Shown piece by piece: positions 21,127 through 26,124 of a stretch of DNA of 52,255 nt. The DNA comes from an uncultured bacterium (GTDB lineage Bacteria > Hydrothermota > Tepidihabitantia > B3-TA06). The notes beneath the pieces were generated by a model. The model saw nothing but the letters and a program-made list of their open reading frames with translations. It made no database searches and had not been told where the DNA came from. A program made the translations under genes and the position numbers. The DNA is taken from contig CAZUXE010000005.1 in assembly GCA_964624585.1 (NCBI GenBank), forward strand, positions 30,178 through 82,432. Reading direction: 5' to 3'. The number at the start of each line of letters is the position of its first letter. The first letter of the stretch is position 1.

Positions 21127-22485
21127 ATGGATTTATTCGCCTTAGAGGATAGAGAAAAAAGCGACGATTTAGGCAACGCTCCCCTTGCTGAACGTATGCG
21201 TCCACACAAGCTTGATGAATTCTGCGGACAAAAACATCTTCTAGGCAAGAACAGACCTCTAAGACGCTTGATAGAGTCAAACCGTCTACCTTCGATGATA
21301 TTTTGGGGGCCTCCGGGTTCAGGAAAAACAAGTCTAGCACTCCTAATTGCAAAGTTGGTCAACGCTCAATTTATTGCCAAAAGCGCTGTAACCGCCGGAA
21401 TAAAAGATGTTAAACAAATAGCCGAACGCGCAAAGATGGTTTGGAAAGCTCATCAGCGGCGAACAATTCTATTTCTTGATGAAATTCACCGCTTCAACAA
21501 AGCACAACAAGACGCTTTTCTACCCTACGTAGAACGCGGAACTATAACCCTTATTGGAGCGACAACTGAAAATCCAAGTTTTGAAGTTATAGGCCCTCTG
21601 CTCTCAAGATCAAGGGTCTTTGTATTTAATCCTTTGGAAACGGATGATTTACTAGAAATACTGCGTCAATCTATAGCTGACGACCGTGGTATAAAAAATT
21701 TACATCCAAAGGTTTCAGATAAGGTGTTGAAATTTATTATTCAAATTGCAGCAGGTGACGCCCGCCGAGCGCTCAATCTCTTAGATACCGCGGTACAAGT
21801 AACTGAACCGGATAAGGATGGTAACCGAACGGTAACAATGGAAATAGCAGAAGCGGTTCTTGAACGAAAATTTCTTTTATACGACAAGGCCGGCGAAGAG
21901 CATTACAATTTGATATCGGCATTTATTAAATCAATGAGAGGTTCTGATGCCGATGCTGCAGTGTATTGGCTAATGAGAATGATTGACGCCGGTGAAGACC
22001 CTTTATTCTTAGCAAGAAGAATGCTAATTTTGGCAGCAGAGGATATCGGACTTGCCGACCCACATGCACTTACTATTGCCAACGCGGCAAAAGACGCAGC
22101 ACACTTTCTTGGTTATCCCGAATGCACTTTCCATCTTGCAGAAACTGCCATATATCTCTCACTTGCTCCAAAATCGAACGCTGTCCTTAAAGCCATTCAG
22201 GCCGCCCGAAAAGACATAGAACAAACCCAAGCCGAACCCGTCCCCTTACATTTAAGAAACGCACCCACAAGCCTTATGAAAACCCTTGGCTACGGTAAGG
22301 AATATCAGTATCCGCATTCCTATAAAGATGCGGTAGCTGACCAAGTCTATCGCCCTAAGGGAATTACAGGAAAGGTCTACTACAAACCTTCAGACAGAGG
22401 GTTTGAGGCAAAACTCAGGGAAAGATTGAAGCTCATGAGAGAACAAAAGCGAAAGATACGGGGCGCAAAGGAAAAGTTTAAGTAA
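21127..22485 (+). CDS. rarA: Replication-associated recombination protein A (AAA+ ATPase, MgsA/RarA)
   Basis: PLAERMRP, WGPPGSGKT, LDEIHRFNKAQQDAFLP, GATTENPSF, KSMRGSD, VPLHLRNAPT. Confidence 0.96.
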   Translation: MDLFALEDREKSDDLGNAPLAERMRPHKLDEFCGQKHLLGKNRPLRRLIESNRLPSMIFWGPPGSGKTSLALLIAKLVNAQFIAKSAVTAGIKDVKQIAERAKMVWKAHQRRTILFLDEIHRFNKAQQDAFLPYVERGTITLIGATTENPSFEVIGPLLSRSRVFVFNPLETDDLLEILRQSIADDRGIKNLHPKVSDKVLKFIIQIAAGDARRALNLLDTAVQVTEPDKDGNRTVTMEIAEAVLERKFLLYDKAGEEHYNLISAFIKSMRGSDADAAVYWLMRMIDAGEDPLFLARRMLILAAEDIGLADPHALTIANAAKDAAHFLGYPECTFHLAETAIYLSLAPKSNAVLKAIQAARKDIEQTQAEPVPLHLRNAPTSLMKTLGYGKEYQYPHSYKDAVADQVYRPKGITGKVYYKPSDRGFEAKLRERLKLMREQKRKIRGAKEKFK

Positions 22486-23641
22486 AGATTCTATCAAGCT
22501 CCTTTTTCAATATTTGGAGAGCGGCAGCAAACTTTGGCTTGTTGCTAGACATATTTGGCCAGCGATTGAGACCTGAAGGGTGAGGTAGAACAATAATTTG
22601 CACTTTACGCTTCCAAATACGTTTCTGAACTAACTCTCCGACTAAATCCATACCAGCAGTCTTGCCAAGAATGGTTTTAGCTGCAACCGAACCGATAAGA
22701 ATAAGAAGTTTCGGACGTGCGTGGGAAAATTCAGCCTCAAGCCAAGACAAACAGTTACGCCTCTGTTGACCAGAAGGCGAAGCGTCATCCTTACCATTAG
22801 AAGCAAGCCCAGGATAGCACTTTGCAACCGCTGTAATGTGTGCCTTGGAACGAATAAGCTCTTCCTTGTAACCTAAATCTGCAAACCATTGCCATAAACG
22901 CTTACCCGCAGGGCCTGAAAAAGGCTTTAAGGATTTGAGTTCGTGACGTCCAGGAGCCTGTCCTATGATAAAGATAGGTCTGTTAGCCCCACCCTGAAAC
23001 ACCACTGCCGGCTCCAGAAACTCAGAACATCTACTACATGCACGCAATTTATCAGCAAATTGGCGAAATAGCCTGTCCTGCTCTGCAATTGTACGCTTAC
23101 GCGCCTTCAAAGACGCTTCGCATCCACAATAATCTTGCCGATAGAGACCAAGTTCATTAGATATCTCAAGACTGCGCTTGAAACCTTCTTGCTTTTTGAA
23201 ATCTTCTGCTAAAAACTCTACACCGTATTTCAGAGCAAGGGCATTTCCCATATCCCGGAGCCAGTTAAACGACTTATGGGGACTTACCGACAGGGTTGTT
23301 GTAAAGTAATTGAATCTTTCCGATGCGGCAAGTTTCGCCGTTGCCTGCAAACGAAACTTGTAACATAACTCACAACGACGTCCCTTTTCCGGCTCATCTT
23401 CTAATCCGTGGATAAATTTTGTCCATTCATCAACATCCCGTGGGCCTTCTATAAGCTTGAAACCCATAGCATCTGCTACCTTACGGGTCTCAACCAGTCG
23501 TTTACAATATTCCTCCTGTGGTTCAATTTGAGGGTTGTAAAAGAAACCGGTTACATTAAATTTTTCACAAAGGCGCTCAAACACCGATGTAGCATCGGGC
23601 GCACAGCAGATGTGAAGCAATATTTTAGGCTTCCGAGACAT
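22478..23641 (-). CDS. queH: Fusion: epoxyqueuosine reductase QueH (DUF208) + uracil-DNA glycosylase-like domain
   Basis: N-half LLHICCAPD, FYNPQI, RCELC, TTLSVSPHK, YRQDYCGC. C-half CSRC, IGQAPG, PFSGPAGKRL, KCYPG, LPHPSG. Single uninterrupted frame. Confidence 0.88.
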   Translation of the reverse strand: MSRKPKILLHICCAPDATSVFERLCEKFNVTGFFYNPQIEPQEEYCKRLVETRKVADAMGFKLIEGPRDVDEWTKFIHGLEDEPEKGRRCELCYKFRLQATAKLAASERFNYFTTTLSVSPHKSFNWLRDMGNALALKYGVEFLAEDFKKQEGFKRSLEISNELGLYRQDYCGCEASLKARKRTIAEQDRLFRQFADKLRACSRCSEFLEPAVVFQGGANRPIFIIGQAPGRHELKSLKPFSGPAGKRLWQWFADLGYKEELIRSKAHITAVAKCYPGLASNGKDDASPSGQQRRNCLSWLEAEFSHARPKLLILIGSVAAKTILGKTAGMDLVGELVQKRIWKRKVQIIVLPHPSGLNRWPNMSSNKPKFAAALQILKKELDRIFT

Positions 23642-23653
23642 TCTAAGGATTGG

Positions 23654-24937
23654 CTAAAAAGGAAAATCGGGAAGGGTTATGGTTGCCGAACGTTCCTGCC
23701 CGACTGAAACAAGCCAAAGTGGAAGAGCAAGCTCATCAGATATCCACTTAAGATAAGAACGAGCCTTTTCAGGCAATTCGTCAAACACTCTGGCATGGCT
23801 TGTAGCAGTCATCCAACCTTCTAATTCCTGATAAACCGGTTCACCTGGAGCTTCATTGTGAGGAGCAACTTCCGATAATATCGCTCCATCGGACTGACGA
23901 TAACCAGTGCAGACCTTTATTTTATCAAAACTATCCAAGACATCCAATTTAGCTATTGCCAAGCCATCTACAGCGTTGAGCTTAACAGCGTAACGAAGCA
24001 AAGGTAAGTCAAGCCAACCGCAACGACGACGACGACCTGTCGCAGCGCCAAACTCATTACCTATTTTCTGAAGTCTATATCCGACTTCACCTTCATCTTC
24101 TGTTGGAAAAGGCCCTGCCCCGACTCTTGTTGCATAAGCTTTAGTAAGACCTACAACTTTAGCAATGGAGCGATACGATATACCTATACCAACCGGTATT
24201 GAAAGTGTCCCGGGATTAGAGGAAGTTACATAGGGATAGGAGCCATGGTCTAAATCCAACATAACACCTTGGGCAGCCTCATAAAGAACCCTTTTACCTG
24301 TTTCAAGATAGCTGTTAACCAAAGCCGCCACGTCACCAACATAGGGCTTTATACGCTCTGCAAGCTGTTTAAGCTCTGAGATTGTTTCATCAAAACCGAT
24401 ACCTGCTCCCCCGTATAACTTTTGGATTACCGCATTATGGCGCTTAACAACTATTACCAGCTTATCTGACAATTGGGGTGAGTAAAGGTCTGCAACCCTA
24501 ATTCCTATACGGGCATATTTATCTTGATAACAAGGCCCTATCCCCCTATGAGTAGTTCCTAAACGATACTCGCCCCTTTCCTCGTCACTGAACTTATCAA
24601 GCAGGCGATGATGAGGAAGTATTATGTGCGTTCGCGGATCTATTGTTATGCGCGACTGATAGTCGACCCCTGCATCCTCAAGTTTCTTCCATTCATCAAA
24701 GAGTGTTTGAGGATGAAGTACGCAACCGGCAGCTATTGCAACATGGATTTTGGGATTGAGAATCCCTGCAGGAAGCTGGTGAAACACCCATTTGACACCA
24801 TCCACACACACAGTATGACCGGCATTCGGCCCGCCCTGATAGCGTACAGCTAAATCAAAGCGAGCCGCAATTACGTCAACCATCTTGCCCTTACCCTCAT
24901 CACCCCACTGTAATCCTAACAAGGCAAGGCTGTTCAA
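23654..24937 (-). CDS. purA: Adenylosuccinate synthetase
   Basis: QWGDEGKGK, QGGPNAGHT, GTTHRGIGP, YPYVTSS, EFGAATGRRRRCGWLD. Confidence 0.97.
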   Translation of the reverse strand: MNSLALLGLQWGDEGKGKMVDVIAARFDLAVRYQGGPNAGHTVCVDGVKWVFHQLPAGILNPKIHVAIAAGCVLHPQTLFDEWKKLEDAGVDYQSRITIDPRTHIILPHHRLLDKFSDEERGEYRLGTTHRGIGPCYQDKYARIGIRVADLYSPQLSDKLVIVVKRHNAVIQKLYGGAGIGFDETISELKQLAERIKPYVGDVAALVNSYLETGKRVLYEAAQGVMLDLDHGSYPYVTSSNPGTLSIPVGIGISYRSIAKVVGLTKAYATRVGAGPFPTEDEGEVGYRLQKIGNEFGAATGRRRRCGWLDLPLLRYAVKLNAVDGLAIAKLDVLDSFDKIKVCTGYRQSDGAILSEVAPHNEAPGEPVYQELEGWMTATSHARVFDELPEKARSYLKWISDELALPLWLVSVGQERSATITLPDFPF

Positions 24938-24966: not shown

Positions 24967-26124
24967 TTAGAAGGTATAGGATATTGACACTTTACGATTC
25001 TGAGTTGTAAAGTCGTAAATCTTTTCGTCTATACCAATATCAAGTTGAAAACCGCCATATTTTATTCCGGCTCCATAGGTAAGACCTATACCTTTCAAAC
25101 TTCTATCACCGGGATGAAATATTCCATTATATATATCGAGATGAGTTAGCTTAATCCCTGTTTTATCCTGTAGAATAACACCACCGCGAGCGCCGGCTTT
25201 ATCATAGAAATACCCAAGACGTAAGGAAAGTATTTCCTTAAATATGGAAACTTCAAAACCAACGCCACGAGGAGTATTCGCCACTTCATAACCGAACTCT
25301 TGAAAAAAGCTGAGAGAATCAACTTCAGGAGGATCTATGGCAAACATTCCAACTAATATCTTGGCAATGTCACCAGTTATCTTCAGACCTACAATTTCGT
25401 ATTGTTCTTTTTTGGTTGGATCTTTAGACATAATGCTCAACGGTTTATATGAAAAACCTGCCCTAAGAGTGAGTGGTAGAGGATCTGCATCTGCTTTTGA
25501 AGAAAACGACATTGGTGAGCCAATATTCTGCAATGCTAAACCTAAGCTAACATTGTCAAAGGGTTTATAGAGAACCCCTGCATCCATTGCCCACGATAGA
25601 GCGCTCCCCCTTCCTTTGAGATTCTTTTCTTTCATTATCCATTCAGGTATAAGGTATGAATATATAAGTTTAAGCCCACCACCTAAAGCCACTTTTTCAT
25701 TTAATTTCCGACCATAAGACAAACCAAGTGCAAAATCAAAGGTGTTATAGCTTCCTATAAGAGTGGCGTCTGATTTTTTTATAACGGTCTCCCCAGTAGT
25801 CAAATAAATCCCATTAAACGCAAAAGTCCCAATTCCTTTGAAAGGTGCTGCAACTGCCAAATATTCATAATACATGTCTTTTGCCAAACCCGGCAACCAA
25901 TTAACGTGCATCAACGAAAAGTTGACAGCATCCTGCTGATAACCCAATCCGCCGGGATTGTAGTAAGCAGCCGAAGCGTCGTCGGAGATAGCGGTAAAGC
26001 AACCTCCAAGAGCCGTTGGACGTGAGCCTGGCCATATGGTCAAAAATACCGCCCCAGGGCGCTTTGGTTGACCAAATACAACTACACTCAGCATTAATAC
26101 CAACAGCGTGATTCTTTTAATCAT
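24967..26124 (-). CDS. porV: PorV/PorQ-family outer-membrane beta-barrel (T9SS shuttle-like)
   Basis: Signal peptide, then GAVFLTIWPGSRPTALG...DDASAAYYNPGGLG, WLPGLAKDMYYEY, DPLPLTLRAG, C-terminal ISYTF. Confidence 0.85.
   Translation of the reverse strand: MIKRITLLVLMLSVVVFGQPKRPGAVFLTIWPGSRPTALGGCFTAISDDASAAYYNPGGLGYQQDAVNFSLMHVNWLPGLAKDMYYEYLAVAAPFKGIGTFAFNGIYLTTGETVIKKSDATLIGSYNTFDFALGLSYGRKLNEKVALGGGLKLIYSYLIPEWIMKEKNLKGRGSALSWAMDAGVLYKPFDNVSLGLALQNIGSPMSFSSKADADPLPLTLRAGFSYKPLSIMSKDPTKKEQYEIVGLKITGDIAKILVGMFAIDPPEVDSLSFFQEFGYEVANTPRGVGFEVSIFKEILSLRLGYFYDKAGARGGVILQDKTGIKLTHLDIYNGIFHPGDRSLKGIGLTYGAGIKYGGFQLDIGIDEKIYDFTTQNRKVSISYTF

Follow-up and report, generated by a model that had tools for sequence, protein, structure and literature searches.

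A single frame for QueH and a glycosylase-fold domain

The stretch of DNA analysed here (the window, 52,255 nucleotides) comes from an uncultured bacterium of the phylum Hydrothermota, listed in public records as 'candidate division WOR-3', and carries on its minus strand a gene that joins two domains in one protein: an N-terminal QueH and a C-terminal domain of the uracil-DNA glycosylase (UDG) superfamily. The QueH enzyme, a [4Fe-4S]/Fe epoxyqueuosine reductase, completes queuosine on tRNA. Translation of the open reading frame (ORF) gave no internal stop across its 387 codons. A preliminary description of the window had reported this frame with a complete QueH and a UDG-superfamily domain, a charged helical linker between them and a convergent overlap with rarA; all of this holds, with both Pfam domains and every named motif at the expected coordinates (Table 1) and the linker modelled as a helix.

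The identity of the N-terminal half is clear. It scores 214 bits against PF02677 (cut-off 23.5), covering profile positions 1-174 of 175, and the Thermotoga maritima QueH of PDB entry 7lc5 matches the fusion from end to end over residues 7-189 (E 4.5e-34). In an AlphaFold2 model of the whole protein, the QueH half superposes on 7lc5 with a template modelling (TM) score of 0.93 and a root-mean-square deviation of 1.2 Å. The metal-site residues C12, C13, D16, C90, C93, C172 and C174 all align with those of the T. maritima enzyme, and they are invariant or nearly so among 23 fusion proteins, whose alignment (A1) is the source of our conservation and gap statements on the fusions. CCAPD, CxxC and YCGC are thus common to the fusion and to the known structures (7lc5, 7lc7, 9deu), including the positions mutated in 9d86 (C9S) and 9dco (D13N). 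What T. maritima QueH lacks is the 190-residue C-terminal extension of the fusion, a protein known from sequence and model.

The rest of the genome, which is 93% complete, gives this half a plausible task. It holds Tgt and QueA, encoded side by side (G000, C19:23189-25302), and the fusion as its single QueH. QueG was not found above cut-off in this genome, nor was QueF, and QueC was represented by weak PP-loop matches of which none was convincing; a YhhQ/Vut_1 transporter is a strong match at 186 bits (C59:6093-6575). This gene content suggests that the organism probably imports preQ1 and needs QueH for the final step.

Where translation begins makes no difference to the architecture, as both domains are intact whichever start is used. 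The ATG at 23641 follows the purA stop after 12 nt in which no Shine-Dalgarno-like sequence is seen (region 23590-23700, minus strand), and a TTG at codon 8, with GGAAG ahead of it, is the start of the database copy (380 aa). The order porV-like gene, purA, fusion gene is kept throughout the taxonomic order of the window, so that purA and the fusion gene are likely co-transcribed.

Table 1. Coordinates of the fusion gene, its motifs and neighbours, and of related loci; positions are those of the window unless a locus is named.
Feature	Position	Strand	Details
queH-udg fusion ORF	22478..23641	minus	387 aa; stop codon 22478-22480; alternative TTG start, codon 8
QueH (epoxyqueuosine reductase) domain	23105..23623	minus	residues 7-179; Pfam PF02677, E 1.9e-63
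CCAPD motif	23594-23608	minus	position confirmed by translation
CELC motif	23363-23374	minus	position confirmed by translation
YCGC motif	23120-23131	minus	position confirmed by translation
Junction helix	23042..23119	minus	residues 175-200; QueH C-terminal and UDG N-terminal helices; DSSP on AlphaFold2 model
Fe-S (iron-sulphur) UDG-superfamily domain	22508..23041	minus	residues 201-378; Pfam PF03167 on 217-378, E 3.1e-28
UDG-domain features			CxxC 202-205, GQAPG 227-231, F241, A271, C275, D286, C297, H354
CSRC motif	23027-23038	minus	position confirmed by translation
GQAPG motif	22949-22963	minus	position confirmed by translation
KCYPG motif	within 22808-22837	minus	position confirmed by translation
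Asp286 codon	22784..22786	minus	invariant; loop after KCYPG; aligns with UdgX His109
C297 codon	22751-22753	minus	position confirmed by translation
HPSG motif	22571-22582	minus	position confirmed by translation
rarA/mgsA	21127..22485	plus	convergent with fusion gene; 3' ends overlap by 8 nt
purA	23654..24937	minus	upstream of fusion gene, gap 12 nt, same strand
porV-like (PorV/PorQ-family outer-membrane protein)	24967-26124	minus	NCBIfam 169 bits; upstream of purA
por-queH-udg operon	L095:63-4182 (G177)		also L096, L097, L098, L101, L102
Other QueH fusion examples	P0046, P0042, P0085, P0078; G029-G034		

Distribution and origin of the fusion

Our search covered the window's phylum at species level (272 genomes). 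The two-domain frame runs without interruption in every genome of the window's own family (f1, 11/11; the source genome and ten others, 64-71% identity), in both genomes of a sister family (f2, about 50% identity) and in one genome of a third family (G108, 45% identity); it also occurs in G107, where contig ends interrupt it. All fusion-bearing genomes belong to the same class, G108 and G107 standing for two families besides f1 and f2. Within f1 the two halves are conserved about equally, at 62-70% identity for QueH and 67-72% for the UDG domain. Five metagenome contigs also carry the fused gene, and both Pfam domains occur together in about 40 protein clusters at the 90% identity level. When 1.84 billion representative proteins were searched exhaustively with HMMER, only three of them and one fragment covered both domains; the architecture is therefore genuine but limited to a small lineage. 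Database names have followed one domain only, either 'QueH' or 'UDG family 4', and no description of a QueH-UDG architecture or of a GQAPG motif was found in the searchable literature, in keeping with the earlier impression that the fusion is uncommon and unfamiliar from characterised proteins.

That the single frame might result from misassembly, from a frameshift or from loss of a stop codon, with two proteins in the cell, is a reading to which we give almost no credence. Distant relatives do possess two overlapping ORFs, but the same frame recurs in 15 independently assembled genomes, in the five metagenome contigs and in the clusters just mentioned, which range from 40 to 100% identity. 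G+C content is uniform along the gene, the junction included (0.41-0.47), and conservation in alignment A1 is continuous through it. Members of the same family and order are all fused, contrary to the refuting condition of the preliminary description (two separate ORFs in close relatives); two adjacent genes are found only in more distant families. The fusion is real, old and conserved in its lineage.

These distant families point to how it came about. Two more families of this class have queH and then udg as separate genes on one strand, overlapping or nearly abutting (G168, G169, G171, G172, G177 and G178; Pfam-confirmed on L095). Because they are kept adjacent and in the same order, the fusion arose from an operon pair of neighbouring genes. 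The unfused QueH ends 5-8 residues past YCGC and the unfused UDG ORF begins about 18 residues before CxxC; the spacing of 17-27 residues between the two motifs in the fusions is consistent with the stop codon simply having been lost. The same end positions suggest what the helix over residues 175-200 is: the native terminal helices of the two proteins run together. AlphaFold2 predicts one continuous helix here (whole model: predicted local distance difference test, pLDDT, 91.7; predicted TM score, pTM, 0.79), and the alignments with T. maritima QueH and with family-4 UDG extend to residue 189 and start from residue 196, respectively. In the model, then, most of the junction helix is the native QueH C-terminal helix joined to the native UDG N-terminal helix. 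Its length is not fixed, with gaps of 3, 9 and 10 residues between clades in alignment A1. A tree of the UDG domain, in which deep nodes have weak support, nests the adjacent-gene lineages among the fused ones and is compatible with one fusion and later fission or with several separate fusions.

The neighbourhood of the unfused genes differs from that of the fused gene in the window's order, which is preceded by the porV-like gene and purA. In these two sister families, a porG-porD(Fer4)-porA-porB operon for a 2-oxoacid:ferredoxin oxidoreductase ends with queH and udg, with an overlap of 4 nt between porB and queH. As far as we know, it is not settled what donates electrons to QueH in the cell; the operon hints that reduced ferredoxin from the por enzyme may feed QueH. 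As a side observation, the unfused QueH proteins adjoining udg read CCAPC, CCGPC or CCAIC (L095:3063-3581; L096:3595-4131, minus strand; L097:3060-3581) where the fusions have CCAPD, the cysteine standing for the Asp replaced in the 9dco mutant structure (PDB).

A UDG-superfamily branch with a rearranged active site

The C-terminal half has the UDG fold and an unusual active site. It scores 99 bits against PF03167 (cut-off 24.3), Foldseek matches the model to several UDG families with a probability of 1.00, and the UDG half superposes on the family-4 structures 1ui0 and 1ui1 with TM scores of 0.79-0.80. As a single sequence it reaches about 50 bits against PDB entries of family 4 and UdgX; a profile of its subfamily scores best against 1ui0 (96 bits), then UdgX (90 bits), with family 5 (2d3y) at 36 bits, on which ground a family-5 (UDGb) identity was rejected. 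It stays below all curated NCBIfam UDG cut-offs: 74.1 against 125.3 bits for TIGR00758, 63.4 against 250 for NF040953 and 72 against 190 for TIGR03914.

With family-4 UDGa (1ui0 of Thermus thermophilus, 4zbx of Sulfolobus tokodaii) it shares the fold and the iron-sulphur site: C202, C205, C275 and C297 match the four cluster-binding cysteines and are invariant in the fusions and their stand-alone relatives. Also common to both are the stacking Phe (F241), the PFxGxAG segment (here PFSGPAG) and the His-Pro of the second motif (His354-Pro355, motif 2 or B), this last invariant or nearly so. The catalytic positions are another matter. In family 4, motif 1 reads GE(G/A)PG. The Glu of this motif (motif A, E52) activates a water molecule in family 4 or His109 in UdgX, and the Asn of motif 3 (N80 in Tth UDGa, N91 in UdgX) hydrogen-bonds uracil (PMC10359453, PMC10776899). 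Here motif A is GQAPG, with Gln228 in place of the Glu invariant in fusions and stand-alone relatives alike; a nearly invariant Ala271 occupies the position of the uracil-reading Asn; and a six-residue loop is inserted after KCYPG, at the site of the UdgX R-loop. The family-4-type label of the preliminary description thus survives for the Fe-S site and the fold and fails for the catalytic motifs (Glu to Gln, Asn to Ala). With these two replacements, and with scores below the TIGR00758 and NF040953 cut-offs, membership of family 4 proper was rejected.

UdgX was rejected as well. The Mycobacterium smegmatis enzyme (6ail, 6ajo) has the same fold, a similar score and a loop at the same place, but it combines GEQPG with Asn91 and the covalent nucleophile His109, none of which the fusion has; the R-loop KRRIH is missing, the TIGR03914 score is below cut-off, and the third Fe-S ligand is a Cys as in family 4. 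The position of His109 is taken by the invariant Asp286, which HMMER aligned with it twice, once with the single sequence (6ajq) and once with the profile. This correspondence raises the idea that the UDG half is a suicide enzyme like UdgX, in which Asp286 would cross-link to an abasic site and so mark or shield lesions instead of repairing them; the title of PDB entry 6l6s reports UdgX H109E cross-linked to single-stranded DNA. Three points make it very unlikely in our view: where UdgX has a Glu to activate His109, the fusion has a Gln, and the E52Q change in UdgX weakens complex formation (PMC10359453); a protein of a single turnover would be a costly means of repair as the only UDG-fold enzyme of a genome; and alignment in so short a loop is uncertain. 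Such an enzyme would in any case be a variant of the explanation we prefer below, differing only in the chemistry of the DNA half.

The altered signature is wider than the fusion. Members of Chloroflexota, Acidobacteriota, Verrucomicrobiota, Acetothermia and WOR-3 have stand-alone proteins of about 200 aa, annotated 'uracil-DNA glycosylase family protein', which share GQAPG, KCYPG, G(R/K)xD..P and PHPSG..W with it at about 40% identity (E 1e-37). These are neither fused nor adjacent to queH, and none was found characterised. Since stand-alone proteins of several phyla carry it, the signature marks a separate branch of the UDG superfamily, uncharacterised and akin to family 4 and UdgX, rather than an oddity of the fusion.

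A probable pair of independent enzymes in one protein

The explanation we favour, with rather better than even confidence, is that the end-to-end fusion of two formerly adjacent cistrons has produced a bifunctional protein with two independent activities. The N-terminal half would be a working QueH, acting after Tgt and QueA on imported preQ1. The C-terminal half would be a [4Fe-4S] glycosylase of the UDG fold, most likely one that removes damaged or deaminated bases from DNA, in which the loop aspartate D286 may take the general-base role of the family-4 motif-A Glu. The halves would work independently; their genes would already have been co-transcribed, and the fusion would lock the two Fe-S enzymes into joint expression. 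Domain identity, conservation, operon origin, rarity and pathway context are read directly from the data, and metal- or active-site residues are intact in both halves; from these we infer that both halves are active, what the substrate is, how D286 acts and that the halves are independent.

A place in repair for the C-terminal half is suggested by its being the only UDG-superfamily gene in these genomes. The fusion is the sole PF03167 match in its own genome and in each of the 13 genomes of f1 and f2. The subfamily profile leaves a gap between scores of at least 167 bits and scores of at most 125 bits, and marks 42 genomes, all of the window's class; no genome with a subfamily UDG had a second UDG-like match at E <= 1e-20.

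For independence, the evidence comes from members that are not linked to queH. In families f12 and f14, the subfamily udg and queH lie on different contigs or more than 1 megabase apart, and f14 has the subfamily UDG in 16/44 genomes and QueH in 43/44. Among 80 metagenome loci with a subfamily UDG, 75 had no QueH within 5 kb; conversely, the 78 QueH loci taken from other phyla were all free of a subfamily UDG within 4 kb. QueH is often found in fusions and has been joined to quite different proteins as well. One frame unites it with RNase HII (RNase HII-QueH, 385 aa), with VanZ (VanZ-QueH, about 300 aa) or with a 5-formyl-THF cyclo-ligase (QueH-5-formyl-THF cyclo-ligase, 431 aa), in other lineages and in some cases in a different domain order, and two families of the window's phylum (G029-G034) have QueH followed by a tail of about 340 aa without a Pfam match (523-540 aa in all). 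Unlinked subfamily members, the variable linker (17-27 residues) and these unrelated fusion partners favour independence. At the stand-alone UDG genes (75 loci, clustered), CcmE/CcmF of cytochrome c maturation (often adjacent), an IF-2B-family protein, an FAD oxidoreductase and an FGGY kinase recur as neighbours (L108-L182); this is probably the synteny of one soil lineage and gives no functional hint.

Three observations weigh against this explanation. Adjacency or fusion has been retained across about six families of one class, a persistence that exceeds what chance neighbourhood usually gives and could mean a functional tie. The UDG half is without the motif-A Glu and the uracil-reading Asn, both central to uracil excision (PMC10359453, PMC10776899), so plain uracil repair is not assured. 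Finally, the pTM of the AlphaFold2 model is rather high for a freely jointed two-domain protein. We give the readings that couple the two halves, taken together, a minor yet appreciable share of our confidence.

The first of these places the UDG half within queuosine or 7-deazaguanine chemistry: it might, for instance, break glycosidic bonds in nucleotides bearing Q, oQ or preQ, in tRNA fragments or in 7-deazaguanine-modified DNA, setting free a base for re-use. The link between queH and udg, kept as operon or fusion in several families, would make sense in such a scheme, as would a genome that seems to live on salvaged precursors of Q (QueC and QueF not found, YhhQ present) and a pocket from which the uracil-specific Asn and the Glu of motif A are gone. 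The queuosine hydrolase families PF01156 and PF10343 are both absent, although PF10343 is also silent in control genomes and carries little weight. Yet subfamily members are often found apart from queH, both in other phyla and in f14, and the subfamily's standing as the sole UDG-fold gene of its genomes suggests a duty in DNA repair. QueA and QueH are required only when preQ1, and not queuine, enters tRNA; a step that releases queuine would hence need a lyase as well. On balance we think this reading improbable. The preliminary description had floated queuine salvage or a link to RNA; nothing ties the UDG-like domain to either, and neither is supported. Improbable too, and a touch more speculative, is a broader version in which the GQAPG/loop-Asp domain forms a new UDG family with a substrate other than uracil, drawn into queuosine metabolism in this WOR-3 class by way of an operon and later a fusion, where it would serve as a glycosylase that frees a 7-deazaguanine base to be used again or as a partner that QueH requires on tRNA.

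A different kind of coupling would make the UDG half an accessory module of QueH, either a nucleic-acid-binding domain that holds the tRNA or a second Fe-S station that passes electrons on. Both halves have [4Fe-4S] sites, the model connects them by a single rigid helix, the por-operon context of the unfused pair hints at a ferredoxin supply of electrons, and the canonical catalytic Glu is lost. Against this, GQAPG, F241, H354 and D286 are invariant, as in a working base pocket; stand-alone UDG members exist without QueH, and most QueH proteins function without a UDG domain. Moreover, the length of the helix differs by up to 10 residues, and there is accordingly no conserved geometry between the clusters. 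We regard an accessory role as decidedly unlikely.

Taken as a whole, the gene represents an undescribed, lineage-restricted architecture of two known folds, one of them a UDG subfamily with a rearranged active site. If its halves are independent, it would be a lineage-specific fusion of an ordinary kind, of value chiefly to annotation. The pairing of queH and udg is nonetheless a candidate 'Rosetta stone' between the synthesis of queuosine in tRNA and base excision, even if the evidence leans to independence, and the translational coupling of queH to the por operon in sister families suggests a source of electrons for QueH. Beyond its own lineage, the fusion exposes an uncharacterised and widespread branch of Fe-S UDGs, in which a Gln stands for the motif-A Glu, an Ala for the Asn, and an Asp at the position of the cross-linking His of UdgX.

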